Part shown: positions 23,911 through 52,252 of the stretch, one piece after another
Layout: every line of letters starts with the position of its first letter
How positions within the stretch are numbered: position 1 is the first letter of the stretch
Origin: Schmidtea polychroa
Taxonomy: Eukaryota
Length of the DNA: 64,000 nt
Reading direction: 5' to 3'
Assembly: GCA_044892525.1 (NCBI GenBank)
Contig: JBJFYX010000144.1
Span: 62,001-126,000, forward strand
The notes under the pieces: generated by a model
What the model saw: only the letters and a program-made list of their open reading frames with translations
Told to the model about the DNA's origin: nothing
Databases searched by the model: none
Translations under genes and position numbers: made by a program

Positions 23911-26296
23911 TGTGTATATGTCAGCATTGAAGAAATAGCAAAATTTTAACTATAAGGTTATCTAATTCTACTTTGTTTTAACTTAAATTAATTGCACAAC
24001 CTAATCACGAGAAGCAGCTTTTCGCGTGTCTTACTCGTAGTTTTTAAATTCTAGAAGGGAACTATATTAGAAAACTTTAGATCGTCCTTTATGTAACCGA
24101 TAGCGCAAACTTCAGGAAACCCCTCCATCTTTAACCTAACCAAATATTTAATGCAGCATTCGTTTCTTATTCTGAGGACGGTTTGTACAACCGATTTCTT
24201 TGCTTTATTAAATCAGCTGCATTTTTATGTGTATTACATATATTATTACTGTTAAAACCAATATGAAAAACATATCAACGCTTCTATTACAATACGGTAT
24301 ATCATTAGTCACATTTAACAAATCGTTAACCTTTAAAAATGAATTCTTTAATAGAAAACGTTATGAATGTCCGAGAAAAAATTCAGGAATTTGGTAAATT
24401 TTAATTTATTTATTAATTAATTTATTAATTAATTTAGATAATATTAATGAAGACAATTTAAAATCGAAGATTAAAGGAAATTTGAAAAGAAAAAGTAAAC
24501 AAAATTTTTAATTTATTGATTTAATTAATTAATAATTTAGGTAATACGAATAAATGTGTCAATAAATCGAAATGAAAATTTTCAATGTAAGTATTGATTA
24601 CTTTTTATAATTTAAAAGAAATTAAATTAGATACTTCTTCTTTTGAATCCTAGGACGGCTTAGATCTAGTTGTAAATTTTAAAAACTTATTCTATTAAGT
24701 TTTGGAAAACCTTTCAAAGACAAGTTTCTAAATCATTATAGATTTCTTGAATTATATTTATAAATTCATCTTCAATTTGAGGAATAACTTGATTTAATTT
24801 ATACAAAACATATAAACACAAAACTCCAAATATTTTAGTGTTGTCAGGTTGAACTTGTAGAGTATTCCAAGTGTATTCTTCTCCTAAATATTCCTCGACT
24901 TCTTTTGTTGGTTTAATTCCATAAGGATCAAAATATATATGTGTAAATATTCTTAGAAAATTATTGAAAAAAATTATTTAGTCAAATGCATTACAAAGTC
25001 ATCTAAAATTAAACCTATTACTTGATTATTAACCTAACAGTCATTAAAAATTAATTTTTATTTAAAATTTAAAAAATTTAGCAAATTATCAAGAAATTCA
25101 ATTAAAATCATCATTAAAACTTTAAATTTTTAATCAATCAAAATGAAATTCTTAGAAAATATATGAAAAAAATATTTAGTCAAATTCAATTACATTACAA
25201 AGTCATATCCTATCACTTGATTATTAACCTAACTGTCATTAAAAATAATTTTTTTTTAAATTAAAAAAACCAATCAATAAAAATGCATCCAATTATCAAG
25301 AAATTAATTAAATTTATCTTAGAACTAACTATAAATTTTTAAATTTTCATTTAATCCACATGAAATTAACAAAAATGTTAAATATTTCCTAAAACCATCA
25401 ACTTAAAAAAAATTGCTATTGAATGCCTTAGACATCAAAATTTATCTAAATAATCTTTCAAATTAATTCATTAAAATTGAAGAAAACACGCTCTATTTTG
25501 TCATTAAATTCAATTAAAATTAAATAAATCAAAATAAGAACTTTGATAAAAAATATTATTCTAAAATGGTAAGAATTAACACTGTAGTGTTAAATGGAAA
25601 GGTAATTATTCTTTAAATCTAATTAACTTTGTCATAATTTCTTTAATTATTACTACCAATTCTCATCATCTTTCAAAATTTATTACTTAATTTTAAATTG
25701 CATCATTTAATTTACTTCATTTAAAATTTTTGCATTTAATTTAGCAAATATAGCATTTAATTACTTTTTTTTTAAATATATCTCTTATTATTATTTCATA
25801 AAAAATCTATTTAAATTTATCATTGAAAATTATTTCAAAAAAATTTGCATCTCAAATTGTCAATTCTCATCGTTGATAGTTTTTCAAAATATCTGGCAAT
25901 AAATTATTACTGTAATTTTCAAATTTTTACTTAATTTAAAAGTATTACTATAATTTAAAAATTTTAATTTTAATTTAATTCTATTTAATTTAATTTACTT
26001 AATTTTAAAAATTGGAACTTAAATTACTAATTTGAACCCTTAATTTACTTTAATTTAAAATTTTAGACTTTATTTTAGAAATTAATTTAAAATTTTAGAC
26101 CATAATTTACCTATTTATCAATAATTTACTTTAGTTCAATTTTAGATCCTTGATTAATTCAATTTAAAAATATAGACCATAATTTACTTTAATTTAAAAT
26201 TTAACCATCAATTTACTTAATTGAAAATTTTAGACCATAATTTTCATGTAAAATTGTCATTGAAAAAATTTTCAATTCTCAGGCGCTGTTTAGTAG

Positions 26297-29200
26297 TGTT
26301 GGCATATGTGGGGAAGAGAAAAATTACGCACGCGCAACCTTCACTCATACAAGGCGTCATCGTTCCGCTCAGGCACTTCCCATACATACACCAGATGATC
26401 AAATGCATATTCCCACGTATGAGCCCGTGGTGATGTTCCACGTTGGTGCTGCTCACACGGGTCGGAAAAGGTTAGCAGGTGAGCCTCTGCCTTAAGACTA
26501 CTCCTAACCCTGTCTCGGTTCGGGTTCCATGGCGCCGTAGAAGGTCTTACCCATTCCTCTACACATCATTCGGTCCTTCCCTGGTCCAAGGGGACGACTC
26601 TGTAGTGCTACCTATATCTGATACCGTCCTATTGTTCACTTTTAATCCCATATCATGCATGCCAAAAACAATCACCGAGAGACAATAAAAATTATATTAC
26701 ATCCACAACAATAATTACATTTATAACAAGGAAAAAGGGGCTGTCACAAAAATAAATGTTCAATATTCACAAATACTCAAGTCCGCTTCCGAATCTTGCA
26801 GAATCAAGGCAATGGAAATCTGTCAGTCAAAGGACTCCCCATCAGCAAGCATCTCGTCGATGTCGACCGGCAATCGTTGGTTAGAGACGTATTTGATGCC
26901 CTCTGCGGGAATTACACGGAAAATTTCCTTCGTTGGAATTGAATGGCTGGAAGAGATTTCTTTTATGGTGGATTGGGCTACCGATAGTGACGCTTCGAGT
27001 GCGGCCATCGCATCTCGGCGTTTTTTATTCTTCTCGGCTCGAGTTGGCCGTTTCCGTTTGCGAGTAGACGGAGGGTTTTCTATGTTCGCGGTGCCGATTG
27101 GTGCTACCAAAATTGGAGCCAAGATGGGATCGGTAGGTCCACCGACCAAGGGTTGATGACTCGATAAGGTTGGAGCCGGGACGGGCGGCAGATAGGTACC
27201 ATGCCCTTGGCAGCTTGTTGAAGTTGATTGGGAGGCCTGATGGTGAGGGGGGAAGACATTGGTTTTCTCGATGACGGGAAATTCTCGGACCCGTTTGGCC
27301 AATTCTGCCTCCGTATATACTTTATGGAGGGCTTCCGATTGTGCTTTGATCGTGAGCCGCTGGCAACGGCTTTCCTCCAGCAGGCTGTCCCTGCAATGCT
27401 CTAATCGGAGAATTTTCTTGCGTTCCTCTTTCATTTGTGGCGGGGAGAACCACGTGCCTTCGTAGAGATCAATTCTCTTTTTCAATGCCCCGATATATAG
27501 GTGGAGCTGCGCGATATCTGCGTTTTTATCGGCGCAGGAGAGACATGGGCGAAGATTTTTTCCAGAGCTGGTAGAGGTATTCATCTAAAGAGTTTACAGA
27601 ATTTTTTATTATCAATTTTACAAAATTTATTGGCTAGGATTTTGTTCCTATTTTACATACGAGGTTCACCATTTTCGCAATCAAACCATTCAGTGGTGAT
27701 TCCAACACCCAAATTATCAGTCGGTGCCCCCATTCATCCAATTTCAAGCATTCAAATTCATCCCCTCAACCATCAACACCTAACGAGAAGAAAACGAAAA
27801 TTCTAGACATAATTTATTTGTCATCATTTTACAATCGGTACGTGTTATGAGTTTGACTATTCCCCTTTTCGCACTTGATCAGTCTAGTGCTGACAATACT
27901 AACCCCTTTATTTTATTTATCATTATCTGATGTTTGCGATTTTACTCCTCATTACTACGTTCTACACAACTAAACCGAGTCGTATTATAAAAGAAAAATT
28001 CGACATCCAATGGACCTCGTTATGTTATACTAAAGTAGTTCAAGTAGAGAAAAATAAAATAGAAAAAGAAAAAAAATTAACAGCAGAACATCTTTGGTTC
28101 ACCTTTAGTTTAGTTTATGATGGTTTGATTTTATTTAAATTTTTGCCGTGAGGTTGTCATGACGACGTTACGCAATATGTAGTTGTGTTAAAAGATCGTC
28201 TTTCGTTTACATGTGGCATGTAATTCAACATGTGACAATGCATGCTAAAGTAATGTTAGTTGTCCCTAGCTTATGAATCGGTTTTGGTGACGTGTTTGCT
28301 TCGAATGGTAGTTTAAGAGTGGGTGTCTGCCTTACGCACGTGATCTCTTTCTTTCGCCTGTGCACACAGTATCGTTTTCTCGATTAGCTTCCTCGTTGTT
28401 ACGTCACGATTATGTCACAGAACATGTTAGGACTCAGAACAATTTGTCGTCTACTGAGAAAGAATTTCCAGGTAGTATGTCAATGAGGCGGATTATCAAG
28501 ATTCAGTTGTCTGGGAGATTGATTAGAAGTATCCACCCAATCATTACGCGACAATTCACTAGCGGGTCAGAACTGATGATTTACTCTAGTCGTTATCAAC
28601 TCTTAGACATCTCTCTATCAACGCATTCACTAAACCTATGGCAGAGACGATTATCGCTCCCTCTCTTCGGCGGATTTTCCTCAGTCATACAATCCGGTGA
28701 ATAATAATCTGTCTGAAATTAGTTTGACAGTTTCCGATAAATTCGACTGCGGTTTCTCTAGCATCGATCGTAAATATTCCGATAATTTCTCGTGATTTGT
28801 TTGTTTTATTCTCAGAAAATCTAGGCTTATCAGTGGCCGTATAACCAACAATCTAACTCAAAAGTACACTGACTATGGGTTTCGTCGTAAATGTCCTGGC
28901 GATGTGGATTCTAGAAGATCTCGGGCTCTATGACATTCTCTGCGAACAACATTGGATTTTTTACGCAGCTATAGCTCCCCAATCACCAGATATTCTCGTG
29001 TCAATTTCCCGAGGGATATACGACATAGACTCTAACTTTCCAATGCGATTGATGGCGACTGGATGTAATGTTAAAAGACGTTGATTCGAAAATTTCCTGG
29101 AGTTTCTCATGATTTCATCTTCGCGACTACTCTTTTAAGAAGTGTATTTTCGACGATAGCGGTGGTCGATCGCACTCGATGAAGGAAATTTCACTCTTCA

Positions 29201-30498
29201 GCTATACTTCGACTCACGGAGTTTCCTCACCTCTCATGACCCACCCAAGAACGGCACTCATTTCTGCCGCCGTCCTTGCACCGTCATGGGAGACAATCAA
29301 CTCCTCTCCTCAAGCAATTCAAAATCAACTCCGACATTAATGGAAAAATTTTGTAAAACAAATAAAATGAATAAATCAGATTTACCCGGCGACCCCACCA
29401 TCTGGGTTCCAAGCATGATGTCTTCCGAGCCATTCAGATGCATGTCCCTCCGTACTGGACAATTTCCTCAAATCTTCTTCAACCTCGAAAATCGACTGAT
29501 ATCTTACTCCGTCGCAACGCATACTCGCAAACCCTTTCACAACGTATTTTCGCTCTGCCGCATCATGCCTGAAGGTCCCAGATAGTACAGTGGCCGGTAC
29601 CATGAAGAAAAAGGCTGCTGTTCATTTCAAATTGAATTTATTGAATAAAATTTATTCTACTTTTAATTATTTTCAACATTTTTACAGCAAATAACTATTC
29701 ATAATATCAATCGAATGTATACCTTTGAGTTTAAAACTGGATCGAATAGAATAATAAAGTCGTCTAAGTTCTCGGTACTTTCCGTAGGCTCTTAACCAGT
29801 AGTCTAAACTGGCTTATCGGCTGTAAGTGGTTTTGTAGGATTGCTTCGTAAACGAGTTCTAGTAGCTGCTAAGTGGTCCTGAAGTCCTGTAGAGTTTCGG
29901 GTTAGAATGATGATAATATTTTAAATAAACTTTTACCTGTAGAGTTTCGGGTTAGAATGATACTCTACAGATTTTTGTCGCTCTTTATATATTATTTTCT
30001 GTCCAATCAGGACGCGACCCGTTTGTATTTTTACTCTTTATTATTATTTTTATGTTTTTATCATCGTATATTAAATTTTTTTAATGGCTTGGCTTATTCT
30101 TATTATTATTTTATTTATTTTTTCTTATTTTTATTATTTTCTCTTCTATTTTTCTGCGGACTTATTGTTATTTTATTGTAATATTATTTTTTGTTTTAAT
30201 TAGACTTAAAATGGTTTATTTTTTATTTATTTCTTAAATTTCTCGTTTATTTGTTGTCACTTTTTTACTTATTCTATTTCTATTTTATCCGTTGTGTGTT
30301 TTAACTCGTTTTATTTCTAAATCTTAAGGGATTTATTGGGTTTTATTCAGTTTGTTTTACCTATTCTTATTCTCTTATTGATTTTTTATCGTTCCTTCCT
30401 ATTTACTAGTGAGATTTTTATATTTTTATCTTATTTATTATTCGAGGTTTACTTTTCTATTCGCTCCAGTTTTCTCCACTCTGAAATTTAGCCCAACA
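26297..30498 (-). repeat. 3' LTR (4202 bp)
   Basis: Near-identical to 52716-56916; TG..CA termini. Confidence 0.97.
26823..27584 (-). CDS. LTR-encoded 253-aa protein (Cys pair, coiled coil, Pro-rich segment, basic NLS-like RKRKRP..KNKKRR)
   Basis: Open in the 3' LTR; ATG directly follows an acceptor-like ctctttag. Confidence 0.7.
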   Translation of the reverse strand: MNTSTSSGKNLRPCLSCADKNADIAQLHLYIGALKKRIDLYEGTWFSPPQMKEERKKILRLEHCRDSLLEESRCQRLTIKAQSEALHKVYTEAELAKRVREFPVIEKTNVFPPHHQASQSTSTSCQGHGTYLPPVPAPTLSSHQPLVGGPTDPILAPILVAPIGTANIENPPSTRKRKRPTRAEKNKKRRDAMAALEASLSVAQSTIKEISSSHSIPTKEIFRVIPAEGIKYVSNQRLPVDIDEMLADGESFD

Positions 30499-30756: not shown

Positions 30757-31416
30757 TTATGTGTGTTGTTCAGTTGCCGTTGATGATGGGAGATTTGGTT
30801 GTTGGGGTTCGATGTTGTAGTATATTCGGCGACTTGCGGATGGTCTGACTGTTTCTGCGATGGAGGTTCGTTGACGGAGGTTTTCTTGGATTACTTCAGC
30901 CATGTTAGCTTCTTGGGACCTTCGAGATGATCTTTCTGATACGGGGTGACTTTTCTTCCAAACTTTGCAGAGGTTATAGATTTTTAGCAGGGTGACTATT
31001 GTGATTAAGGTGGTCTCGGCGATTACCACATAGAGGAGTTCATAGGTGTGGTTTATTTCATTCGGGCTTTTTACTTGATCAGGTGGGTTTTGTGTTTCTT
31101 GGTGTTGGACCTGCTGTTCTAATTAATCGACTTGGTGAATTTGGTCCAGAATTCTTTTATCGATGATTTTACACATAGGGTTGTGATTACACATAATTCT
31201 GATGTTGTTGATGTAGTTTCGGGTTGCTCGAAGGTTATTGATAAGATTGGTTCTTATGGCATTTGAGCAGGTGCACGATGGGGTTGTTGGTTCGATTTTC
31301 TGATTGGGTTTTCTGTTGTCTCGAACCCGTTCGATTTGGGGTTTCACTGGCTGTCGTCGTGTTAGATCAAGAATTATCATCATCATCAGCGTTACAATGA
31401 TCGGTTGGCTTCTCAT
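30757..31416 (-). CDS. Small type I membrane protein, interrupted by one in-frame TAA (31123-31125)
   Basis: ORFs 31123..31431 and 30757..31029 are in the same frame, and the 31 codons between them are open. Signal-like MRSQPIIVTLMMMIILDL, 4 Cys, TM LLYVVIAETTLITIVTLLKIY. Confidence 0.55.
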
Positions 31417-31476
31417 GATACTGATATACATTTAGTTATTTTATACATATTTATATACATCGCTTTTTTGTTGGTT

Positions 31477-32199
31477 TTAATTTTGTCGTTTCTTTTTAGG
31501 GTCTCTTTCTCGGATTCTCATTAATTTAGATTCTGCTTTAATGACCCTATGTCGGAGTTCCGGCAACATTTCGAGCTGCCTATCTTTCTCTTGGACCTTG
31601 TCCGTCAAGTGCTTTATCTCTCTTTTCAAGGTTTTTATCTCCTTCTTCTTCTCCTCCAGGTTCCGTTCTAGTTCCAATTGTAGGAAATCATTTTCCTCTG
31701 GGTCGTTCGTCTTTGGACTTTGTTTCTGCCGTTTTATTTCTATTTCTCGGTATTTATTGATCCATTTCTCCATTTCTGCACTTTCCTGTACTTTTACTCC
31801 CAGCTGGTTTTCTAGACCCCTGATAGTTTCTTGTCGTTTCCTCGCTTCCGTTTTCCAGTAATCTTCAATCACTTCATTAGCCTTGAGACTGGCTCTTTCC
31901 TGCCATAATTCTTCCGCGATCTTTTCCCAATTTCTCCCTCGCTTTCTTTGCTCGTGAAGCCATTCATTTTCTTCCTCTACTTCTTTCTTTACTTCTTCTA
32001 GCAAGGTGTATTCTCTTTTCAATACTTTAATCATTTTTCGATTATCTCTCCACCTTTCTACTAATCTTTCGTTTTCTTGTCTCTCTTCTTGTAATTCTTC
32101 TTTGATAGTTTTCTTCCTCTCCACTTCCTCAACTTCAATTTCTCCCTCCTCTAGCTCGATTATCGATGTCATGATGGGTTGTCCGTTTTCAGTATTCAT
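31477..32199 (-). CDS. Accessory Trp-rich coiled-coil protein, 240 aa
   Basis: Long ORF with the element's A-rich codon usage; heptad-like E/K/R/L pattern; acceptor-like tattatag before the ATG. Confidence 0.75.
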   Translation of the reverse strand: MNTENGQPIMTSIIELEEGEIEVEEVERKKTIKEELQEERQENERLVERWRDNRKMIKVLKREYTLLEEVKKEVEEENEWLHEQRKRGRNWEKIAEELWQERASLKANEVIEDYWKTEARKRQETIRGLENQLGVKVQESAEMEKWINKYREIEIKRQKQSPKTNDPEENDFLQLELERNLEEKKKEIKTLKREIKHLTDKVQEKDRQLEMLPELRHRVIKAESKLMRIRERDPKKKRQN

Positions 32200-32374
32200 T
32201 TTCTATAATATATACATAATTAATGATTGCGCTACAGTGCGGCTTATGCTTATACAATTATATGTTATTTATATAATCAGGGCTACAGTCCCTTTCCTAC
32301 TTTTACTGTACCATTAATTTTTTTGTTGGGATATAGGTCCCGATTTTTATATTTTTTATCTTTTCCATTTATCT

Positions 32375-33397
32375 TTATACGAAGGTCTCTTCCTGGCCTA
32401 CATATCCTTCATCGCTGTCTATTGACGTTTGTAGTTGGATTGCGATGGGATCAAATGGGATGTAGTACCGGGGAATCTGCGCTCTAAGTTCCTGAACTTC
32501 GTCTCTTAGTGCTCTTGACGCATTGAGTTCCTCGTCCAACAGGTATGTTAGATACCTGGTTTCGTCGTCCCTTACTTCGATCTGTTTTTCTAACTCTTCC
32601 GCTTTTTCGCCGTTCTCCCATTTTTTGATCTCCTTTTCGAGGTTCTTGATATTTTCGTCATACATCTTCCTCTCGTTTTCCAATTTCTTGTTCTTACCGG
32701 CTAGCACTATATTCCTTTGTTCTAGTGCCCCCTTATAGCCGTTATTGTCTCTTTCAAGATCGAGTTCGACGATTCTACCTGACTGTTGCAGGATCATCTC
32801 TTCCATGGCGGTATTCTCCTGTTCCTTCATGGACAGTTTCATGGCTAGATGCCTTTCAAATTCCATGGCCTTGGTCTGCCAGGTTTGACTTCGTGCCGCT
32901 ATTTTCCTGAGCCTTCTTAGCTCTTCTCTCTGATCAAGGTTTTCCTCCCATTTCCCTTGTTCACTTTCGTATTCCAATCTCTGCGGCAATTCTCTCATCT
33001 CTTTTTGGATTTCTCGATGTTGTTTTTTCCACTTTCTGGCCTCTGCTAGTAGTTGGCGGGTCTTTCTTTCCTCCTTTTGTTTTTCTATTTCCCGCTTCTT
33101 ATTCTCATCCGTTAGTCTTTTTCTTGACTCCTGTACCAGCTGCGTCAGGTAATGCCCGTGCGCCTCTTGCCTGGTATTTTCTAATGCCGACCATTTGGCG
33201 GCTCTTTTGCAGGCCTCGGCCTCCGCCCGTAAATTCTGTACTAACCACTGGAATTGGTGGTTTTCCCATTCTCTCGCTTCTTCGAGGTAATTTCGTGTTT
33301 GGTTTGATAATTGTATCATCACTTTGGCCCATCTTTCTCTATGTATTCTACTGATGTTTATTTCGTTATTTGGGGCTTCCGTTTGATCTTGAGTCAT
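32375..33397 (-). CDS. Accessory Trp-rich coiled-coil protein, 340 aa
   Basis: Long ORF with coiled-coil composition; acceptor-like ttatttag 6 nt before the ATG. Confidence 0.8.
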   Translation of the reverse strand: MTQDQTEAPNNEINISRIHRERWAKVMIQLSNQTRNYLEEAREWENHQFQWLVQNLRAEAEACKRAAKWSALENTRQEAHGHYLTQLVQESRKRLTDENKKREIEKQKEERKTRQLLAEARKWKKQHREIQKEMRELPQRLEYESEQGKWEENLDQREELRRLRKIAARSQTWQTKAMEFERHLAMKLSMKEQENTAMEEMILQQSGRIVELDLERDNNGYKGALEQRNIVLAGKNKKLENERKMYDENIKNLEKEIKKWENGEKAEELEKQIEVRDDETRYLTYLLDEELNASRALRDEVQELRAQIPRYYIPFDPIAIQLQTSIDSDEGYVGQEETFV

Positions 33398-33614
33398 CTT
33401 TGTCTAAATAACGATATCATTAACTCAACGTTGTACGCTTATATTCGGCTTATTTTTTATTTATTTTTACAATTCGTTATAGGAGTTGTTTTAGGAGTTT
33501 TTCGCTTAAGTTTACCTTTATTAGATTCGGGGATTTTTCTACACTACTATATACTATTTTACGGGGTATATATGCCGATATTTACAATTAGTATATACAA
33601 AATTATTCGTCTCT

Positions 33615-35003
33615 CTACTCAGTCCTACTCTTCCCGTCTCGCCTCACCGCTATTTTTATGTATATAGTGTCGTTTCTCGTCATGTCTTCTGCTTTCCGCT
33701 GTAGGATGAAATTCGGTGCTCCAGTTGCTGGTCCTTCTTCTTCCAAGGGCCTTTGGTAACATACGAGGTTTCCCGCTGTATGGAAACTCTGTTCATGTAT
33801 ACTTTGATAGTTCATCATTACGAGGTCTATTTTTGCTTTGAATGACCATTCTATTAACTCGTCGTATAGCCCTTTGCACATCAAGAAGAATACTGAGAAA
33901 TGCGTTCCGTATGCACTTCCATCCCCATTGGGGTATGCTTTCATTTTCATTTTATACCCGTTTTTCCATGAGTAGAATGCTGGACTTAGTAATGTTGTAT
34001 CCTTTCCATTTCTCGCTCTCTGCATCTTCTCTTTTACTCCCGTTATTTTCCATATGTATGGAGCCGTGGGTATTAATTCGTTGAGGTTTAATTCGCTTAC
34101 TTTTTGATGTAGTTCTTTCACCATAATGTTGCTAGTTTCCACTAGATCTGTCTGTATCTTTGTACTTGTTCTCGCCTCTTCAAATGCTTCCTTTTCTTCC
34201 AATAGTTCTTTTACCAACGCTTTTAGCGAGACTATTTCTCTTTCTAAGTTTTCGGTTTTCCTTTCGTTTTCTTGTAATACTGTTGACCATATTTCCGCGT
34301 GTGTTGATACGTTTTCTGCTAGATGTTGGGGTAATTCCCCTCGGTGTAATTGTTTCTGACATCCCCATTTTCCTAGCACACACGTTATCTTTTTTCTTTC
34401 ACATTCTTTTAGATGTTGAGCGAGTTTTATTACTCCGGGTTTATCGCATTTGTTGGGGCATTCTCCTCTGAATTCTGCGCACACTTTCTTCTCTTGTATG
34501 TTGTGATGTTGACTGATTAGTTTTTTCCAGGTGTCGGTTTCTCCGCAATACTCACATTTCTCCAGTCTTTCTTCGCATCGACTTTGATGTTCTGCTTCTT
34601 CATTGACTTTAATCTCTTCTTGGCAACGTTTGCATTGACTGATTTTATACTCACATTGCTCCATATGTTGCCTCACTTCCCATATCACTCCTCGCCAATT
34701 ACATGGGGTGTTTTTACATCCTAGGTTTGCATTCAACATATCTTTTACAGCTGCTTTATCTTCGTTTGTATCTCCCAAACTTGTTATCATTGTTTCTTTG
34801 CATACTGGGCACCATTGTGGTCCCTTCTTTATTATCTCCTCTACACATTCTCTGCACATTCTGCATCCACATCTGGTTTGGTGAGGTTCTCTTAATAAGC
34901 TCTTGCATATTCCACACGTTACATGGTTGTGTATTCGAATTGTGGTGGACTTTCTGACTTGTTCAACAATTTCTTTGAATTCTTCTCGTTGTCGCTTATC
35001 CAT
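33615..35003 (-). CDS. Element-borne intronless TRAF (RING, TRAF zinc fingers, coiled coil, MATH)
   Basis: CGICKSLLREPHQTRCGCRMCRECV..CPVC; several TRAF zinc fingers; MATH YIWKITG..SPAFYSWKNGYKMKMKAYPNGDGSAYGTHFSVFF..KGLYDELIEWSF. Likely start MDKRQ at 35003. Confidence 0.93.
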   Translation of the reverse strand: MDKRQREEFKEIVEQVRKSTTIRIHNHVTCGICKSLLREPHQTRCGCRMCRECVEEIIKKGPQWCPVCKETMITSLGDTNEDKAAVKDMLNANLGCKNTPCNWRGVIWEVRQHMEQCEYKISQCKRCQEEIKVNEEAEHQSRCEERLEKCEYCGETDTWKKLISQHHNIQEKKVCAEFRGECPNKCDKPGVIKLAQHLKECERKKITCVLGKWGCQKQLHRGELPQHLAENVSTHAEIWSTVLQENERKTENLEREIVSLKALVKELLEEKEAFEEARTSTKIQTDLVETSNIMVKELHQKVSELNLNELIPTAPYIWKITGVKEKMQRARNGKDTTLLSPAFYSWKNGYKMKMKAYPNGDGSAYGTHFSVFFLMCKGLYDELIEWSFKAKIDLVMMNYQSIHEQSFHTAGNLVCYQRPLEEEGPATGAPNFILQRKAEDMTRNDTIYIKIAVRRDGKSRTE

Positions 35004-35092
35004 TTCTATAATTATATATATACATATATTCATTACTGGTACAGTTTCGTATTTTTATTTACAGTTATTTACATTGCTATTTTAGGTTATAT

Positions 35093-35452
35093 TTATTGGC
35101 TGGAAGAGTCGGCCTCTTGTCCGCCCTCTTCCCTGCTGGTTAACCATTCTGACCAGTCTTCTATCTCCTCTCGCTCCATCTCTTCCGCGATTCTTATTAA
35201 CTCCTCTTCTTGCACCTGGCTGTATCGTGATATTCGGTCTATCTCTCGCTGCATTTGTTCTATTTTTATTCGTTGGTCTTCGATTATTCTTACATAACTG
35301 AAGCCTTTATTTAAACTTTCGACTAAGCTTCTTTGTACAGCGAGTCCTTGTTCCTGTAAATTCGAAATCACTTGAGTTAACATTGCACATTGTTGTTTCC
35401 ACATCTCCTCGGTTGTCGTACTGTGATTTACTTCCTCGCCTATTCGTTCCAT
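35093..35452 (-). CDS. Accessory coiled-coil protein, about 119 aa
   Basis: ORF with coiled-coil composition; likely ATG at 35452. Confidence 0.6.
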   Translation of the reverse strand: MERIGEEVNHSTTTEEMWKQQCAMLTQVISNLQEQGLAVQRSLVESLNKGFSYVRIIEDQRIKIEQMQREIDRISRYSQVQEEELIRIAEEMEREEIEDWSEWLTSREEGGQEADSSSQ

Positions 35453-35620
35453 TCTTAATTTATATATACTTTTCAATCCTTATCTAATTTTATTTTCATA
35501 TTAATTATCCCCATCATTATATACTATTGATACCGCGCTTATATAAAAATATAGAATACTGTTATATAAATAAATATTACCTACTTACTTTTTACAATCT
35601 ATATACAGTCATAATCCTTT

Positions 35621-38600
35621 CTATATACGTGAGCTTGGAGGGCGCTGAGCATTACAGGCCTCCACCCACTGTTCCTGCTTGATATTACTTGGTCGTTTTA
35701 CACGATGTTGAAAATTTCTTATTCTGGCCATTTCTAGTTCTCCGCGATGCCGTCTATCTTTGATTATTTTTATTGTCCCCCCCGTTATGATTAAAAAGGC
35801 CCCTGTTATTATTATGCCGCTGATCCACATCATCTGTTTTACGCTTATAATTTCCGCTTTTCCCTTGTTCGTTATTGTTGATATTGCTTCTGTGCTTTTT
35901 AGATTACCGTCTTTGCCATTTCCTTTCATCATTCCTCGTATTCTTGCTATTTCCTCGTTCATACCTTCCTTTGCCATTTTTTGTATTTTCTCCATCTCCT
36001 CCTCGGATACATAATTGTCTTGATGTTTCTCACTGTTTTTCTTGCGTTTTCCTTGCTCATCTTTTTCATCATTGATTTTTCTTTTCCTCCCTCTTTTCCC
36101 AGGGTATCGTCGACATTCTCTTTCTGGACCGTTTCTCAGGATACATACCGTATATTCCTTTGGTGGTTGTTGTTGCGTTACATATTGTAGACAATTTTCT
36201 CCTGGGCCTAGCCTCGAAATACACACTTTGTGCTCTTTTCTTGGTTGAAGCTGTGTTATCACTATTTCCCCTCCTTTACTCAGGTGTACCTCTTTCCATT
36301 TGACTTTTGTTATCTTCTTCCCGTTTCGATGTTGGTACGCTTCTTGTATTCCCACTTCCGTTATTGGTTCTGCATCTTCATTTTTTAACACTAGTCTCTG
36401 ATAAGCTCTAGACATACATCTTCCTAATATACACCTTTCTTTTAGATCCCATTCTTCTTTTAGATCCCATTGCTGCTCTTGTACTTGTTTTTTCTTTTCT
36501 TGTTTTAGTTCTTCCTCTTTGTTGTCCTTATTTTCCGTTTCCTTGGCTTCTTTTATCGTTCTCATTCCTCCCTGGGCTGTTATCATTTCCACCATTGTTA
36601 ATACGAGTATCATTATCATCATATTTGTCTCCATTTCTTTGTTGGTAAAAAGTAGGCATACCCTCTGTTTTCCACTATTCGTCTTTTCTTCTTGCTTCCT
36701 TCGGTTTCCCGGGTTATTTTCCTCTTTTTTCCTGCTCGCGTCGTTATTTTCTTGATTATTCTCCTCTGATTTCTCTTTCTCTTTATTCCCGTTTCGACCT
36801 TTTTCATTATTATCGTCGTCTTTATCGTCTTTATCTCCCCCGCTATCGTTTAAAATGTCGTCCTCGACATTTATATCATTCAACAATCTGCGGTATGCCG
36901 TTAGCACTCTGTTTCTTGCTAATTTTGCTTCGAATTCGAACTCCTTTCTGCCTGTTGCTACATGTCTCTTTCTATTCCATTCTTTTACTAATTCTCTTAA
37001 TTGTATCCGACGATGTTTTCCGATTCGCTTTTGTTCGTTTAGATTTTGCGTGAATTTGAGGTCTTCTCTGTTCAATACGATCATTATGATTTTCGGAGTT
37101 CCTCCTTTTGTTAGTGTATTTTTAACCATAGCATTTTCTCCGTTTTCGTAGAACTCATTTATATTTATTGCATATTTATTGGTTTGCGGTATTTTCCATG
37201 TTAGCAATAACTTCATGGCTTCTAAGTTCATCCGTATCGTGTTCCATTGGAACTGTGACGTGTTTTTACAGATATTTTCTACCTCAGTTCTTGTAGCATT
37301 TTTACAAATGAATCTAATCATTTCCAAGTTTGGTTGTATTGTTGCCCAATCCATGGTAGAATTCCCTTCGTTCGATATTTCGTTCAGTCTTGATCCTGAT
37401 TGATGTAGTATATGTAATGTTTTCGGGTGTATATTTGTTATTGCTGCATACATCATTGCTGTTTCTCCTTGTTCATTTTTTGCATTAGATTCTTCCCCGA
37501 AGTCTCTAAGAATTCTTATGATGGTTATGGCTCTGTTTTCTTTTGCTGCTAAGATGGCTTGTTGTAATGGTGTTCTTGAATCTTTCGTCGGTAAGGTGAA
37601 TGCTAGTGGTATGAATGTTTTTATTTTTTCTATGTCTAGATTTGTGGTCTGGTCTCTCGCGTAGGTGTGTACTGTTTTTGTTATTTTTGCTAGTATCGCT
37701 TCATCGGATAGATCTTGCATTTCTTCAAAGAATACTTCTTTAGCCTTACGTATTACTATCTCTTGGTCGGAGTTTATTATCTTTGGTTTACTTGTTGTTG
37801 CTATATATCTTATTATTTGATCGACTCGTTTCTCAGACTCTCTTGCTGTTATTTTCTTGATTTTTATCTTTTTCTTGTTCGAACTGTTAATGCGTTCCTC
37901 TGCCGTTAGAACTTGAATAATGCTTAGGTAAGTTTCTCGAATGTTATTCATATTTTCCATCATATATAATACACTCACGGTTTCCCAAAATTTTACTTGT
38001 ACTTTATCGGTAAATTGAGATATAGCTTTTTCGAAGTTGGTAATTCGGTTTCTGATTAGTTGCTCGTCTTTGTGATTTGAAAACTTTATGCCACGTTGTA
38101 GTAGTTGATTTGGAATTTCGAATAGGTGATGTCCTCTCATCGCTTCCCTCATCAAGGTGTTTTCTCCTTTGGTAAATGTTTCGTTTATATCTACCATATA
38201 ATCGTTTTTGATCGGGTTCCTCCATGCAATTAGTATTCCAGTAATTGTTATTAATTTCTCTTTGATTGCAGTTAATAACCCGTCATACATGTTTCCTATC
38301 TCCCTATTATCCTCGTACGATAATAGATCTACTAAGATTATGAATGCTTCAGTGCTTTTCCCTTCGATTGCATGATGTAGTGCATTTTTATGGTTGTGAT
38401 CTTGTGTGGTTATCTTTGACCCAGTTTCAAGTAATGCGATAATAATATCTTTAGCTTTATCCCGATTGGCTGCTATCATTAGTGGAGTGCAACCTTGGTT
38501 GTTTTCTTGATCTGTCGAAATGTTACAATCGCGAAATGCTTCAATTGTTTCTAATATCTGTTCGTTACTACCCACCTTTAAAAGCTTGTGCAGGGGTGTG

Positions 38601-41600
38601 TCTCCGTAATGGTCTGTGATCGTGAATAATATAGGCCATTGACTTTTAACTACCCTGAGCAATGGGTGTGTTCTTTCTCGATTTGCATAGTTTTCTATCA
38701 TTGTTAGCAGACCTCCCAATATCTCAAAATCTAATCTGTCTTCTGCCCATCCGGGCATTTTAGCTTTCACTTCCTTTATGATTTTCTCGGCTTCTGATGG
38801 TTGTAACCCCAATCGGTTACCTGTTGGTTCGTTTATCTGCTGTAACATATTTATTCTATACGTTTGTGATCTTGTTGTTAATGTTCGCCCTTCCGGCTGG
38901 CTGGTGGCTGTTTTCGGTATTGGCTTACATCGTGCCACATTTACATATATTGGCCTCGTGAAGGGGTTGTTTACCAATCGTACTCTCACATTGGTTTCTC
39001 CGATGAATAGAATCTCATACGGACCTTTACCGTTTCGTTGTAATTTTTTGGTGGTTCCTGGGATTAATTCTGGTGTTTCGATCATCACCCAATCGCCTGT
39101 TTGAAACGTATGCTGTTTGACGTTTTTCTTTCTATCATGTAACTCTTTGTAACTTTCTTGATAAAATTTTATATTCAATCCTGCAGTTTCCCAGATTTCC
39201 TGCATTCTTTCCTTGAACTTGGTTACATAATCGTCTATTTCCATGTATTGTGATATTGGTGGCTGATATTCTAGATCCATTGGCATATTGCATTCTCTGC
39301 CGTACATCAACCTAAACGGACTCATCTTTGTGGACGCGTGAATCGACATTCTGTAAGCCATTAAACATAATTTTATATACTCGTCCCAGTCGCGTTGATG
39401 ACGATCGACATAATTTGATAACATTTGAATCAGTGTTCCATTGAATCTTTCTGTCATACCATTAGTTTGTGGATGGTACGGTGATGTTCTAAATTTTGCG
39501 ATCTTGAAGTAGTTGGTAACTTCGCTCATTATTTCGCTCATGAAATTTGTTCCTTGATCAGTTAATATCTGTTTTGGTGTTCCATATCGACAGCATATCT
39601 CCTCTACTAGTATTTTCGCGATTGTTCTTGCTTTCTGATCTGCCATTGCGAATGCTTCGGGGAATTTTGTCAAATAATCTGTGATTACCAATATATATAT
39701 ATTTCCTCTATCTGATTCTGGTAGTGGACCGACTACGTCCATTGATATCATTGTCATTGGTTCCGCTGGTACTGGCATTGGCTTTAATGGTGCCTTCCAT
39801 TTCGTTCCCGTGTTTTTTCTGGTCGCGCAAGTTATACAGTTCTTTACCCATTCCGTTACATCCTCGGTCAATGTAGGCCAGAAGTATTTTTGTTTCATTC
39901 GTGCCAACGTCTTTTTAGATGACATATGTCCTCCGAGTCTTCCGTCATGGTATTGTGTTAGCAGATCTTTACGTCTATTCTCGGGAATGCACATCAGTCT
40001 TTTCTCGCCATCCATTATCAATAACCAATCTTTCTCTATTATATATCGATGTCGATGTTTATCCATATGCTCCTTCAATTTTTGATCTTTCTCATATACC
40101 TCTGCTTTCCCTGTTTTCACATACTCAATGATTTGCTTCAACTCTGTATCCTCTTGTTGGTCTTTCCGTAATTGGCAAAAATCTAAATCTTCTGCTACCA
40201 TCAGACATATTCGTTGCATTTCGTGATCTACTAAATCTGGAAAGATAAATCTGGACATACAATCTGCATTGGCATTCGCTCTTCCCGCTTTGAATTTTAT
40301 GAACGGTGAATATTCTTGTAACTGCATTGCCCATCGCATCAATCTACTTGAAGCTTCTTTGTGTTGACCAAGCCATACTAGTGGTTGATGATCTGTTGTG
40401 ATACATATTTCGTGTCCCCACAACAAATATCGAAAATGTTTAATCGCTTGTATAATTGCTAACGCTTCTCTCTCGGTTACGGAATAGTTTTTCTCATGCT
40501 TTTTAAACGTTCTGCTGTAGTATCCAATCACTCTTTCTTTTCCTTCTTCATCCAGTTGTCCTAATATTGCTCCGGCTGCATATCCACTTGCATCTGTTGC
40601 TAATAAGAACGGTTTCTTGAAATCAGGATGTACTAGTATTGGGGCTTCAATTAATTTATCTCGCAATGTCTCAAATGCTTTTTGTTGTTCTGCACCCCAA
40701 ATAAATGAAATATCCTTTTTCACTAATTCCTGTATTGGTTTCGCAATACCTGCATAGTTTTTGATGAATTTTCGATAATATCCGCATAATCCGAGAAATT
40801 CTTGAACTTGGGTGACAGTTTTTGGTGCTGGACATGTTTTTATTTTTTCTATGTTTCTTGGATCTGGTTCTTTGCCTTTTGCTGACACTATTTGTCCTAA
40901 GAACGTAACCTTTTCTTTTGCCCAATCACATTTGGATGGTTTGAGTTTCAATTTCCATTGTCGTAATCGGATGAACACGTTTCTAATGTCTTCCAAATGT
41001 TGTTCGAATGTTGCTGAATATATTAATAAATCATCAATATATACCATACACTGCTTGATCCCGTGTGTGACAAAATTCATACATCTCTGGAATGATGCTG
41101 GGGCATTGGTCAGTCCGAACGGCATTTTCCTGAATTGGTATAGATCTCGGCCCAATGTGAATGCTGTTTTCTCTTTGTCTTCCTCCTTGACTTTGATCTG
41201 CCAATATCCGCTTTTCAGATCTAAAGATGTAAAATATGCGGCCCCCTGTAACATAAGTAACATCTCATTGATGTCTGGTAACGGGTATGTGTCTCTTTTT
41301 GTTACTGCATTTAGTTTCCGATAATCGATACAGAATCTCTGAGTACCGTCCTTTTTCTTCACCATGACTACTGGAAATTGCCATGGCGAACAACTTGGTT
41401 CGATCACTTGTGCATCTAGCATTTTTTGTACTTCTGCTTCGGCTATCTCTTTTTGCTTCTCTGCTAGTTTGTATGGACGTAGTGCGATTGGAGTTTCGTC
41501 TATTAATGGTATTGCGTGTAATGTAACATCGCATGCTCCCAAATCTAAATCCGAAATTGCGAATATATCTTTATATTCTATCAATAATTGTTGAAGTCTT

Positions 41601-44600
41601 TCCTTTTCCTTTTCCGTTAGCAATGTGCTATCGATTGTCCATAATTCGTCAGCTTTCGTTGTTTCATTGGTGATTTTTGGTAATTCGATGTCTATCATGG
41701 GTGTCAATCTACCCAATCTTTCATTTTCATATATGATTTTATCTTCTTCCTCGAAATTTGTGATGTTGATTGGTATTTCCCTGTCTTCCTTTATTGTTAT
41801 TATTTCTCTTGCTAATGGTAATTCTCGTCGTTTTTCGAATGATTTACTTGGCTCAAAAATGGCTTCTCCTTCCATTCCTGCATCCACTTTTATTTGACAT
41901 ATCATCTGGGATTTTGCTGGTACAATTATTTTCTCCGGACATCTGATTATTGCGTTCATTTTGCATATTCTACCCATTTTATCTTTTAGGCACATTGTTG
42001 TTAGATCTATTACTACTTCTTTGAACAATTCCGGCATTAAATCCGTTCCGATTATACATGGTTCACTCAGTTTGGGTATCACCGCTAGATACGTTTCAAT
42101 TTCATTATCTTGATATCGTAACGTAGTCCACCATCTTCCTACTACGTCTACGGTTTCTTTACTGCATGCAATAATATGGATAGTTGTTTGTTCGATGTCT
42201 TTCCAACATTTACTGGGTATTTGGTTTATTGCTATTGCTGATACATTTGCTCCGGTATCTATCATTGCGCTCGTCTCTTTCCCGTTGATTTGGATCATGA
42301 CCGTTACTGCTGCTCCTCCTGGTGAACTCATTACTGCTATTGTTCTGACGTCATCAGCTTGGTCTACGCTTTTCGTTCTTCGGGTCGGCATATAGTTCAT
42401 CCCTGGTTGACTTGGTAACTGTGGATACATATTTTGTGTCATGGTCAAAGCTGTTTGTTGTCCAACGATATCTGGTGGTATATAACTTCCGTTGGCTATC
42501 CAGGTATTTGTTTTTTCTTTCTCCCAATATGGCGCTGTTTCCATTGGCTTTTCATTCGGGTTTCTACTTGGATATGGGTATTTGTCATTCCCGTTGTCGT
42601 CATCATCACTATCGCTGCTGTTTGATCGATTTCTAAATCTGTCTAGGAATTTTGGTTTGTTCTTTTTTAGTTGTGCTCTCGTTGCTTCATCATACATGGT
42701 TTTCCGAAATCGTCTACCGACTTCCTCGTCAGTTCCTTTTATTTTCGTCAGTATTTTGATCAATCGTTTTATTCTATGTATGTCTTTAGAATGACCGTGC
42801 AACACCATTGTTTTTGCCAAGAATGGTAGAAAACCTACTATCAATTTCCAATTCACTTTCTTTTCTCGCTTGTATATATCGAAGCATGCCAACATTTGGG
42901 TCAATATTACCCTGACGATCTGAATAATTAAGATGATTCCCAATATTCCTGCCATCATTTGACCGAACACTAGAAATCTTCCCCACATTGCTTTCATCAT
43001 GTTTGACGTGGCTTGTTGAAAATGATCGGGTGACAATAATAGTTCGTAATTGGGGCCTGACTGGAAATTCGTTCCCCCAGTTATGGTAACCATATTCGAT
43101 AGAATGGATTCTCGCCTTGCTGGGAATAGTACGTTTAGTCGTGCTGTTTCTAAATCCTCTGGTGAGTACATACCTGCTTTTGACACATCAATTGGTTTGA
43201 AATCTTGCTCCGTTGCGAGTTCTATTAATCCAAACTTTTTAGGTTCTTGTACTTCGGTTTTTACCGGTAACATTATCCATTTCCCATCGGGTTTTTCATA
43301 TAACGGTCCGTATGCATTTGAACAGTTAAAGGTGTTCGGATAAAATCCAATTGGGTTCATAATTCTAGTGACGGGTTGAACGAATCTGTTTCGCCCTTTG
43401 TAGCTAATTTCTAATTCATTTGCACATTTCCCTGGTGGAATTGTGGGCTTTCTTGGCAGTCGCGCAAATGTCTTGGTACATGCATATGTATACATTACCT
43501 CTCCCACCATTCTACCAAAATGTCCATCCGGTAACGGGAGTGATGGCATTGTGTTATCTGGGTGTGTTATTGCGATGGCTAATTTTGTTTTTAGTATCTC
43601 TTTATTCAATGAACAGTCATTTTGTATAAGATCGTAATACACTTTTTGCATTGTCGTTTGTCCTCGATGAAATAAAAAGTCCATTTTGTTATTGGCGTAC
43701 AGGTACAATTTTACGTCCTCTGTTGCTACCTTTCCCACTGCTCGGTCTATTACTTGCCTTGACATGTAGATACCTGCGTAGTTCGTCCGATATACTATGC
43801 TGTCACATTTGGTGGTCTCTTTTTCTCTGATGAATCTCATACCGATATCTGGATCATCTGTAATTAATGCCGTTGGTGATTTTTGTGTTGTGAGTCTCTT
43901 TTCTTTGGGGGATGGTGGAACTGGTTTCCCATTTCGCATCCTTACGTTTCCATTCTCTTCATCGTCATCCTCGTTTTCGTAAATTTCTCCTTTTACTTCA
44001 TTGAATAGAGCACTTTTTAGCAATTGGAGTCGGCATTTTTGGGTGTTAGCTTCATATATTATAGTCGAAATTCCCGTTCTACACACGTTTTCCGTAGCTC
44101 TGCATGCTGGGTTGGTTTTCATTTGATAGTTGTTTGCGTCGAATTGTGCTTCGTATTCCTTCAACTCCACTGTGTAGGACTCAATTACTACTACTCCCGA
44201 GATCACTTCTCCTCTGATCGTATATGTGCCTCCGTTACATGATCCATCAGTTGATTTTACTCGTCCGGCTACATAGATACTTTCCGTCTTGATCATTCCG
44301 CTTTGTCCGTGTATTGTTACTCCATCCCTGATTCTCATCGCTCCGGTTCTAAAAAGCTCTTTACAGTCTTCCCGTTGTATAGGTACCATTTCTTTATCTA
44401 ATCCAGGTAATATAAGGGTTGAATATGAGTATTGTCCACAGTAGTATGCCAACACTTTCTTCGATACTACGCATTCTCTAGCTTGCGTTCTAATGAAATC
44501 TGATTCTTGGTATACGTGATAGGAGACTTTCTTTTTTACTATATCTAATTTATTCGGAAATGCCTGTCTACATTCCTCTATATCTCTCAGGGAGTATCTT

Positions 44601-45517: not shown

Positions 45518-46542
45518 TGTCGTTGAAATTGTTCGTCAATTTCGGTTTCTGTCGTATTATCGGCAATTTCCTCTATGTTCAGCTTATTTGGTTGTTGATA
45601 GCTAGTTGATGGTTGGCTTGTTGTCCATATTTCAGCCCCTGTCGGCCATCTTACCAGAATTGGTGATCTTTCTCCAGCTCCTTCATCGCTGTCTTCCAAT
45701 ATAATTTCCTCGATTTCCTCGGTTTCATTCGATTTACTCGCCACTTTGTTAGGGCTTGGTGTACTCAAGCTACCTTTCGTAGGTTTACTGGATTTGCTCT
45801 TCTTTTTAATCGGTTTTCCCAATGTTTCTGCCATTGTCAATACATTGATCTCCCCCAATCTCATGGGTGTTATTCCGACATCTGCATTATCATCCAACGA
45901 TTTTCCGAATAGTTGTAGGTGAAATGGAGTTTCGTATGCTAATTTCTTTTTTAACTCTCTGATCTTTGTGGTTGGATGTACTTCTGTATCCTCAATGCTT
46001 TTGTCGGGATACTTGACTCGGATACGATACCTTTCCTGGGTATCTTGTGCCCATTCTTGGTTTCTCCATTTCCTAATAATTTGTTCTAGCTGTTCTGGGT
46101 ACCATTCGTTATATTGTCGGTATTCCTCAATCGCTTTCGCCATTTCTCTTAGATTGTGGATATTCTCTGATGTCTTTAGGATGATGTTAGCCAATGCTAT
46201 TACTTGACGTTTTTGATTTTTTGCTCCCGTTGCTAAGATATCACCTAATTGTTTATATCTTTCCTTCTCTTCTCGTTCTCGAGCTTCCATCGCTTCTTCG
46301 CTGTCCATATCGGCATATTCGCGTTCTTTCTTTCTCATCGCATGAATATGTCTAGTTTCCATTTCACTTTCTGACGTAACATCCGTTTCGCTTTCGTCGT
46401 CCGATATCGATTCTATTTCGTCCTCTTCGTATTTTGGAGGTTCATCTTCCTCTTCTTCTGATTCACTTTCTGTCTCACCAATGTCTGTTTCTACGAAAAT
46501 CCCTTTCCTGATTTCCCATTCTTTGTTTTCCGCATTCCACAT
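45469..46542 (-). CDS. ORF2, 357 aa: acidic tract plus ubiquitin-like domain; in frame with gag after a single TGA
   Basis: RYRIRVKYPDKSIEDTEVHPTTKIRELKKKL..HLQLFGKSLDDNADV follows the ubiquitin pattern (QIFVKT..TIENVKAKI..RLIFAGKQLEDGRTL). Confidence 0.8.
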   Translation of the reverse strand: MWNAENKEWEIRKGIFVETDIGETESESEEEEDEPPKYEEDEIESISDDESETDVTSESEMETRHIHAMRKKEREYADMDSEEAMEAREREEKERYKQLGDILATGAKNQKRQVIALANIILKTSENIHNLREMAKAIEEYRQYNEWYPEQLEQIIRKWRNQEWAQDTQERYRIRVKYPDKSIEDTEVHPTTKIRELKKKLAYETPFHLQLFGKSLDDNADVGITPMRLGEINVLTMAETLGKPIKKKSKSSKPTKGSLSTPSPNKVASKSNETEEIEEIILEDSDEGAGERSPILVRWPTGAEIWTTSQPSTSYQQPNKLNIEEIADNTTETEIDEQFQRQKKDQRKQYQKVKLTK

Positions 46543-49497: not shown

Positions 49498-50883
49498 GAC
49501 TGGTTCTTGTAACTCTATTGTTTCTTTTAAATTTTCCAGCGATGTCGCTAAATTATAGACGGATAATTCTTCTGTTGACCCGGTTAGGTTGTTTGTTATA
49601 TCGGATAGGCTTTCTCTACTTCTAGATCGACTGGGCGTATGTCCGGCTGTGGGGTTTTCTTGATCGTATATCGGTGTTTTGTGGGGTCTTTTTGCTCCTT
49701 GTGATATTCCTCTCTGCTGCCTAAATGATCGTCCTCTTTTGAGTTGATCTAATTCGTCTCCTGAAAATAATACGTCTCCTGGCTTACTTGAAGATCTAAG
49801 GTTGGGTTTATCCGTGATTTTCTTTTTACTCTTTTCTGTCTTTCCACGTGGGTTTTTCTACGGTTAGCGGCTGCTGAATTGGTCGAGTTCGGTTCTGATA
49901 GTGTTTTCTTCGAGGAATATTCTGCGTAATTTCTCGGCTGATTTCCGGAGGAGATATCTGAGTCCTTGATTGACTTCTGCTAGTACGTCGATGCTAAGTA
50001 TTTCGATAATTCCGTCGTAGATAAAGATGTCGTTGTCGTCCTCCGTATTCGGATTGATTTGTTTTTTCCTTTGTGCGGGTTCTGAATTGCTTTTCCTGGG
50101 TTGTTTGTATATTCTCTAGATTCCTTTTGAGCTGGTTCTGAATTGACTTGGTTGGATAGATATCTACAATGAAAAAATGATATCGTGTTGCATTTGCTTA
50201 CACGAATCAATCATTCCTTTTTACCATATTCAAGCACAGACACCGTTTTTGGGCCTCTGTTATACTTCTCTTCATTTCCCCTCATACACTTCTTCGTGGA
50301 ATATAATTACCCATCAACCCATATTTTTCGTCGATTTTAAATTATCTATTTGGGGTAGTAACAATTATCTATATAGTCGTATAAATTATCTATAGTTAGC
50401 ATTTATAATATCGATAGGTCGTTGTCAGTTACTGCTTATTACCCCCCATATTTTCCTTAATCCTTTTACGCGGTTCCGCTATTTTATTTACTCTTTCGTC
50501 TCTGTTTCCTTTTACTCGGTTCTACTCTGGAACCAAAAACAAAATTCGTTTAACCGGTTTAAACCCAAAAAAAATTCTGTAGAACTTTGTCTACCTATCT
50601 GGGATCCCCTTTAATTAATTAATTATTTCCTCTTTGGTTCATCATCTATTCATACTTATTCATTGTTTCTATTATCTCCTGATTCATTTTCCTTTTCCGT
50701 TTCTCCTTCTTCACTAAAAGAATTTTACTATCATCTTTTACGAGCTCGTTTAATCCTTTCTAAATTCAAATTCCATATTTCAAACTCAATTTGCTTCTAG
50801 CTAGCTTTAATATTCTATCTCACTAGTAATTTAAATGTTATCAACTTGTAGCTTAAATGCTATCTCACTATTACTTTAGGCCT

Positions 50884-51772: not shown

Positions 51773-52252
51773 CTAACTGAAATAGATTGTGTGCTTCTCT
51801 TTTATTACACATGTGCACATAGAACAACGGATTAAACTGGCGGCGCATTCGTCACAATGGCTAAGGTGCCCACAAGGTAGAATCAGAGTTTTGACAGGTC
51901 GCATCTTGCAAATGTTACAAGTTCTCAAGGCCGCTGCTTTCTCTACTATTGATGTTCGTATCCGCTGAGACAGAGTTTTGACTTGTTCGCGTATCCTCAC
52001 ATATTCGATGTTCAGAGCGGGGTCGTCGAGTCGTTGCTGCATCCATTGGTAATGGGTAGACAAGTCGGTATCGGTATTTGTTGATCCTAATCTGTCGGTT
52101 AGAAAGTTTTGTTTGGATATCAGCGGTGCGTTGTGGCTTTGTTGTTCTAACAGTTCTATTTGTTTCAGTTTTTCCTTTAATGTTTTTATTGAATCATTTT
52201 CTATTTCGATGAACCGGCTTAGCTGTTGTAGATGTTGTCTAGCTTCCGACAT
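51773..52252 (-). CDS. Coiled-coil + C-terminal IAP/MDM2-type RING protein, 159 aa
   Basis: CNICKMRPVKTLILPCGHLSHCDECAASLIRCSMCTCVIKEKHTIYFS ending at the stop; no BIR domain. Confidence 0.85.
   Translation of the reverse strand: MSEARQHLQQLSRFIEIENDSIKTLKEKLKQIELLEQQSHNAPLISKQNFLTDRLGSTNTDTDLSTHYQWMQQRLDDPALNIEYVRIREQVKTLSQRIRTSIVEKAAALRTCNICKMRPVKTLILPCGHLSHCDECAASLIRCSMCTCVIKEKHTIYFS

Follow-up and report, generated by a model that had tools for sequence, protein, structure and literature searches.

Giant Gypsy elements of planarians have been described under the name Burro (GYPSM1), and TRAF-domain cargo in Burro is already in print: according to the accessible part of PMC6431247, Jurka 2007 and Grohme 2018 had recognised MATH_TRAF_C, BIR, ankyrin and BCL2-like motifs in these elements, and an element of Dugesia tigrina carries a MATH domain in an accessory open reading frame (ORF). 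The B-IAP of Burro1 reportedly guards stem cells against apoptosis (accessible part of PMC13465017, on Lee et al. 2026), while for the host, the accessible parts of PMC7586133 and PMC6109357 state, respectively, that Smed-TRAFs are required for cell survival and that planarian TRAF/MATH genes are expanded. Our literature search found no report of a full-length, RING-bearing TRAF in Burro and no description of accessory Burro mRNAs that are spliced, although either may appear in the figures or supplements of Grohme 2018, Jurka 2007, Rossi 2014 or Lee 2026.

The locus that we compare with these systems lies in a window of 64,000 nucleotides of Schmidtea polychroa DNA, to which all positions without a chromosome name refer. 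The element that carries the TRAF gene is 30,620 bp long, has TG...CA termini, and is flanked by 4.2-kb LTRs that are 99.76% identical to each other (5' LTR at 52716..56916 and 3' LTR at 26297..30498, both on the minus strand, as are the ORFs below) and by a 4-bp target-site duplication, GTAG (26293..26296 and 56917-56920). Between the LTRs are found an accessory ORF with a C-terminal IAP-type RING (zf-C3HC4_3; 51773..52252), located 5' of gag; the gag ORF (retrotrans_gag with CCHC knuckles; 46549..49857), which is without a MATH domain in this element's family; a 3304-codon frame (35621..45535) with a mononegavirus-type fusion glycoprotein, protease, RT, RNase H, integrase and ankyrin repeats; and, 3' of pol, an accessory cassette of four ORFs (31477..35452), i.e. 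a 119-aa ORF (35452-35093), the TRAF ORF, and two charged ORFs of 340 aa (33397-32375) and 240 aa (32199-31477). By these features, which match those described for Burro, the element is a young Burro-type Gypsy.

Several further observations concern the same stretch. A single TGA separates the gag ORF from a 359-codon ORF that follows it in the same frame (45469-49857), and this 359-codon ORF overlaps, in a different frame, the one that contains pol; in the family that we call B, the corresponding region is one polyprotein of about 4800 aa. The element leader, from the RING ORF to gag, contains a 73-nt tandem repeat at 50884-51181. A 253-aa ORF is present in the 3' LTR (26823-27584), its counterpart in the 5' LTR being split by an indel. 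Outside the element, the window holds open reading frame pieces at 16808-18660 and 6066-6893, which we take to resemble a hAT/BED-finger transposase and a non-LTR reverse transcriptase.

The TRAF gene of the element occupies 33615..35003 on the minus strand as a single reading frame of 462 aa that no stop interrupts; the preliminary description, which had called it full length from RING to MATH and intronless, was correct in this respect. All the domains of a TRAF2/3/5-like member of the TRAF family are present: the N-terminal RING, identified with Pfam (residues 30-68; 34800..34916), is followed by a zinc-finger array at about residues 96-231 (34311..34718), where the conserved Cys/His columns of the alignment form five units as counted by eye, by a coiled coil (TRAF-N, residues 232-304; 34092..34310) that is one long helix in the predicted model (mean pLDDT 91), and by a C-terminal MATH/TRAF-C domain (residues 316-453; 33645..34058), supported by Pfam (8e-24) and by a fold match. 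The RING has eight Cys ligands and is therefore of the C4C4 type instead of C3HC4; the CGC of its motif, TRCGCRMC, is encoded at 34863-34871. Among PDB entries, the nearest relatives by sequence are human TRAF3 and TRAF2, and a Foldseek search with the predicted model returned TRAF3, TRAF2 and TRAF1 as top matches; a word-index protein search gave 17 distant, unnamed matches.

The gene is present in many other copies, which we have assigned to three element families, A (that of the window element), A' and B; these labels, like "TRAF4-like" below, were coined in this analysis. In a genome search with the MATH region (1374 candidates), the 150 matches listed comprise at least 123 copies of family A at 85% identity or more and at least 27 copies of family A' at 69-75% identity, both counted by eye; 89 of these family-A matches lie in open frames that are 461-484 aa long, and no stop interrupts the matching part. 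In another genome search, 141 of the 148 matches listed belong to family B, whose TRAF frame has 487 aa. The position of the TRAF gene is identical in the three families (3' of pol, after a homologous small ORF). A family-B copy has a MATH domain in its polyprotein and, 3' of pol, the TRAF followed by a BIR+RING ORF, as is expected of Burro1; these Burro1 hallmarks (polyprotein MATH and BIR ORF) are absent from the window element. The families are much closer in pol than in the cargo, with RT identities of 98% (A vs A') and 88% (A vs B) against TRAF identities of 70% and 32%. One family-A MATH match, at C1:210027599, lies in a 1789-aa open frame, perhaps a deletion fusion with pol.

The element TRAF is under purifying selection, with a dN/dS of about 0.14, and does not evolve neutrally: pooled pN/pS is 0.14 in family A (codons 1-301, which played no part in the choice of the 21 distinct intact copies), 0.15 in family A' (11 intact copies) and 0.17 in family B (14 copies), values that are biased somewhat low by the use of intact, best-scoring copies only. 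Between families A and A', dN/dS is 0.06-0.08, with dS near saturation, and the RING, the fingers and the MATH domain are alike in this; the eight Cys residues of the RING are invariant in the 32 intact copies of the two families. As candidates for domesticated element TRAFs, ten loci (L203-L212), which lie close to C1:152.8-153.5 Mb and C1:183.5 Mb and show 86-87% identity, were considered and rejected: they are copies of one broken, MATH-less 3.4-kb fragment of Burro, and at least eight of the ten adjoin the integrase of another Gypsy.

Since all the TRAF modules are conserved, the element TRAF is likely a trimeric adaptor or a ubiquitin ligase, as far as domain content can tell: it would trimerise through the coiled coil and the MATH domain and bind host signalling partners, and the intact eight-Cys RING would allow it to act as a ligase or adaptor. 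We propose that it tilts TRAF-dependent stress and innate-immune signalling in favour of the survival of the cell that harbours the active element. By analogy with the B-IAP of Burro1 and with the host Smed-TRAFs, a pro-survival or immune-dampening role appears the likeliest one. The best overall explanation of the locus, and one that we consider reasonably probable, is that a selected, full-length TRAF is standard Burro cargo, captured once, long ago, with a pro-survival role.

The main rival to a signalling role would be that of a decoy, in which the element TRAF, much as viral immune antagonists do, would block signalling by entering the trimers of host TRAFs or by sitting on receptor tails. 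The conservation of all the domains needed for trimer formation and partner binding is compatible with a decoy, as is the presence of a fusion glycoprotein and of other death and ubiquitin modules in the element; moreover, the MATH groove departs from that of human TRAF2, in that RIY is replaced by KAY and the SSS stretch is missing from the alignment. We take these positions of human TRAF2 to be important for binding, and thus, binding by the element protein may differ or be lost. However, an invariant RING under a dN/dS of about 0.1 is not obviously needed by a pure decoy, and we regard this role as unlikely.

Located 3' of pol, the TRAF ORF needs an mRNA of its own; we propose that a short leader, made from the LTR promoter, is spliced onto an AG just before the TRAF start, as would also be the case for the other accessory ORFs. 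The putative promoter and leader lie at 56350..56426 on the minus strand (inverted CCAAT, TATA, a short exon and a donor-like CAG/GTAA site about 50 nt past the TATA box), and the same pattern occurs in diverged LTRs (L196, L213, L126 and L122) and in none of 1000 shuffles. The putative 3' splice acceptor, TAG, is located 2 nt before the TRAF ATG (35006..35008, minus strand), and YAG is found 1-2 nt before this ATG in all 26 distinct upstream windows from families A, A' and B. A TAG within 6 nt of the ATG precedes five of six accessory starts of the window element (background 0.21-0.24), a regularity noticed post hoc, the 119-aa ORF being preceded by AAG, not YAG. In a family-B copy, YAG occurs 0-3 nt before a start in 7 of 8 sense accessory ORFs (background 0.07-0.21; binomial p from 1e-5 to 4e-4), with one ORF scored at its second Met and two further frames set aside as continuations. 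Contigs of four runs were compared with 31400-35800: those of one run, which is guessed to be RNA, cover the TRAF ORF, and among the contigs listed there is no join or loose end at the TRAF acceptor; a poly(T) loose end at 32318 sits on a genomic T run and may reflect internal priming, and one contig skips 213 nt between ends that are non-canonical; none of these contig observations is weighed for or against the proposed splicing.

Spliced-leader (SL) trans-splicing, which is known in Schmidtea mediterranea (accessible part of PMC12582326), would resolve the accessory ORFs, including the TRAF, in an operon-like manner instead of the proposed cis-splicing. Acceptors at the ATG and short spacers would suit it, as would the tandem TGTAAATAA motif that precedes the TRAF within the spacer (35053..35073, minus strand; conserved in families A, A' and B), which resembles a 3'-end signal; the leader-donor pattern was, furthermore, not found when searched for in the family-B LTR. 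Against it stands the conservation of the unit of TATA, short exon and donor in A, A' and related LTRs, so that cis-splicing of an LTR leader appears the likelier route from these motifs, and SL trans-splicing an unlikely one.

The origin of the element TRAF was approached with two trees, both from quick searches with SH-aLRT support only, in which the host TRAFs are a sample taken from among the matches listed. The full-length tree (37 rows, 447 columns) unites the TRAFs of families A, A' and B (99) and places them within a triclad clade (97); in the RING+MATH tree (43 rows, 272 columns), the element TRAFs are again united (86), also together with the MATH domain of the Burro1-type polyprotein (94), within a triclad clade (99), where the intron-bearing cluster genes are one derived group (86) and the single-ORF genes occupy deeper branches. 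Within the triclad clade, where support is 80-81, the element TRAFs may be either nested among the host genes or sister to them. Among 1.84 billion representative proteins, the best single-stretch match of the element TRAF is TRAF-2 of Dendrocoelum lacteum (33%). Third-position use of the element TRAF (A3 0.49, T3 0.14) is fully converged on that of pol (0.47 and 0.18), in line with a long residence, compared to A3 of 0.31-0.38 and T3 of 0.30-0.44 in host TRAFs. The TRAFs of the three Burro families thus likely descend, as the trees suggest, from one ancient capture in triclads, and the donor would have been a triclad TRAF2/3/5-like gene in which the Cys of the RING was already present and coding introns were likely already absent.

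Several independent captures by different Burro families, grouped by a long-branch artefact, would be the alternative. The element branches are long (about 1 change per site) and compositionally biased, so the grouping may be partly due to long-branch attraction, and the 32% identity between the TRAFs of families A and B is hardly above that to host genes (31%). The families nevertheless share the place of the gene, after pol and the homologous small ORF, together with the motif upstream of it, and the clade is supported in both trees; repeated capture is, in our judgement, improbable.

Traffic in the reverse direction, or both ways, has also been considered: an ancestral Burro element would have retro-copied a TRAF, this intronless Cys-RING copy would have founded the whole triclad-specific clade, and the cluster genes would have gained introns later and multiplied to hundreds. 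This reading draws on the intronless state of the deepest host members and on a topology in which the host genes together are the sister group of the element TRAFs, which the AU test does not reject (p=0.22); if it were true, the element would be the source of the planarian TRAF explosion, with its own copy still steering host cell survival. Dendrocoelum has members of both host subclades, however, and Burro expansion is reported only for dugesiids and land planarians in the accessible part of PMC13465017; both points speak against an element-to-host origin, which we consider very unlikely.

The route of capture is less evident from gene structure than the preliminary description had held, where the lack of introns was taken to mean that a spliced host mRNA had been acquired. 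Capture via RNA is the usual route for LTR elements; the nearest host relatives of the element TRAF are, however, themselves single-ORF genes. At least nine host TRAFs (including L121-L125, L127 and L164) encode everything from RING to MATH in a single frame, within AT-rich DNA, one of them (L121) being 71% identical to TRAF2-like A of Dugesia japonica; the lack of introns is therefore no proof of mRNA capture, and the donor may already have been intronless. Among the sampled host TRAFs, no single donor and no intron-bearing parent of the element TRAF was found. Whether these single-ORF genes are themselves element-borne was considered and rejected: there are no Burro pol or accessory ORFs in the 10-20 kb examined at these loci (10 kb for L164, L167 and L198), where unrelated RT pieces and short LTR remnants (130-410 bp) are all that was found. 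As a separate observation, the single-ORF genes form small clusters on C2 and C4 (L121-L127, L164 and L167) and have orthologues among the TRAFs of Dugesia and Dendrocoelum, whereas introns and a His RING are retained in the TRAF4-like genes; this is a hint that the triclad TRAF2/3/5 clade arose by an ancient retro-copying event.

The preliminary description had tied the element TRAF to a neighbouring host TRAF (452 aa; 10719..12214, minus strand), a member of a large tandem family, because both share an unusual CGC in the RING (APCGCHFC in the neighbour). In silico splicing upholds the three introns claimed for the neighbour, whose exons (12214-11618, 11572-11432, 11381-11283 and 11240-10719) are separated by GT-AG introns of 45, 50 and 42 nt. 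The CGC is indeed present in both proteins, but is not special to the pair: Cys occupies this ligand position in 56 of the 60 distinct host RING strings sampled (His in three TRAF4-like genes and Val in one; one locus was unparsed, and L113 and L119 were read as CGC by eye), in all 16 element RING strings, and in three named TRAFs of Dendrocoelum lacteum, and thus marks a triclad-wide clade. Outside triclads CGC is unusual, yet it recurs there: among the database TRAFs with a parsable RING (183 of 278 fetched), Cys is found in 17, two of them named echinoderm proteins, and His in 144.

Of ten host proteins scored against the element TRAF, nine, all of them from single-ORF genes, reach 108-250 bits, and the lowest score belongs to the neighbour, at 45.8 bits over 105 aa. 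Its place beside the element is a matter of chance, the element having inserted into a TRAF-dense tandem array: among the 150 relatives of the neighbour listed, 86 (counted by eye) lie within C1:2-17 Mb, where a unit repeated from the window is seen at about 6.9 and 7.2 Mb, and with relatives this dense, adjacency is expected by chance. That the element TRAF belongs to a lineage-specific TRAF clade, as expected by the preliminary description, was borne out, the clade being triclad-specific; a special relation with the neighbour's own subfamily was not. That the element captured a spliced mRNA of the neighbour's intron-bearing, lineage-expanded family, with the CGC as the record of this event, is hardly tenable: CGC, the intronless state of the element TRAF and common membership in the triclad clade are what it can appeal to, but the CGC is widespread as described above, the AU test rejects a joint clade of the element TRAF with the nine genes of the neighbour's subfamily (p=0.006), identity is 24.8% over 105 aa only, with no DNA similarity, and the neighbour has two zinc fingers (also counted by eye) and a degenerate MATH domain, compared to the five fingers and canonical MATH domain of the element TRAF.

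Additional observations were made on the neighbour and its family. Its N-terminal exon is 100% identical at four places on C1, and the unit of element plus TRAF occurs at about C1:6.9 Mb, C1:7.2 Mb and on contig C144, which may be a recent segmental duplication or assembly redundancy. The MATH exon, far more variable than the RING exon among the neighbour's paralogs, contains a threefold 7-aa repeat (10850-10915) and no NGDG loop. Many host cluster TRAFs have a conserved TTAG located 5 nt upstream of the start codon (window position 12220), which suggests a further 5' UTR intron or a trans-splice site.

With regard to gene counts, element copies make up hundreds of the genomic MATH matches among about 1551 first-look candidates, so that unmasked planarian TRAF counts would be inflated, as had been suggested, and these copies need masking before a planarian TRAF census. 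The companion suggestion, that such elements could feed the TRAF expansion, found no support: the sampled host cluster genes bear introns and group apart from the element TRAFs, and in the single tandem cluster of element-derived fragments that was studied, the pieces are broken and truncated. The expansion of host TRAFs is genuine and, judging from the sampled genes, separate from the element copies; for the open question of how it arose, the triclad-wide C4C4 RING and the conserved intronless host TRAFs are useful. The discovery itself is a modest one, as TRAF-domain cargo in Burro has been published and the specific link with the neighbour is not real. If the proposed function holds, the TRAF joins the tested IAP as another intact host signalling gene on board Burro, and is a candidate tool to steer stem-cell survival or immunity, one that can be knocked down separately.

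Lastly, we compare the locus with the known systems. As described in the accessible part of PMC6431247, Burro/GYPSM1 shares with the window element a length of more than 30 kb, 4-kb LTRs, gag, MATH_TRAF_C cargo, and a fusion glycoprotein that precedes the protease, RT, RNase H, integrase and ankyrins; the MATH domain described there belongs to the polyprotein or to an ORF located upstream, whereas here a complete RING-to-MATH TRAF is located downstream of pol. Unlike Burro1 proper, the window element is without the MATH-bearing polyprotein of about 4800 aa and without a BIR ORF after the TRAF. Like the B-IAP of Burro1 (accessible part of PMC13465017), the element TRAF is a host-type cell-death or ubiquitin gene aboard a Burro element; B-IAP has been functionally tested, whereas the role of the TRAF is inferred, and Lee et al. 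2026 may describe the TRAF ORF. In domain order and MATH fold, the element TRAF resembles the planarian TRAF2-like proteins (TRAF2-like A of Dugesia japonica, Smed-TRAF-2A/B, and TRAF-2, TRAF-4 and TRAF-5 of Dendrocoelum) and vertebrate TRAF2/3/5, which are also its best sequence matches; the CGC is common to the element TRAF and the triclad TRAF2-like genes, while vertebrate TRAF2/3/5 have the His ligand, and what sets the element TRAF apart from the known TRAF2/3/5-like proteins is an identity of about 30%, the codon use of the element and the altered groove residues.
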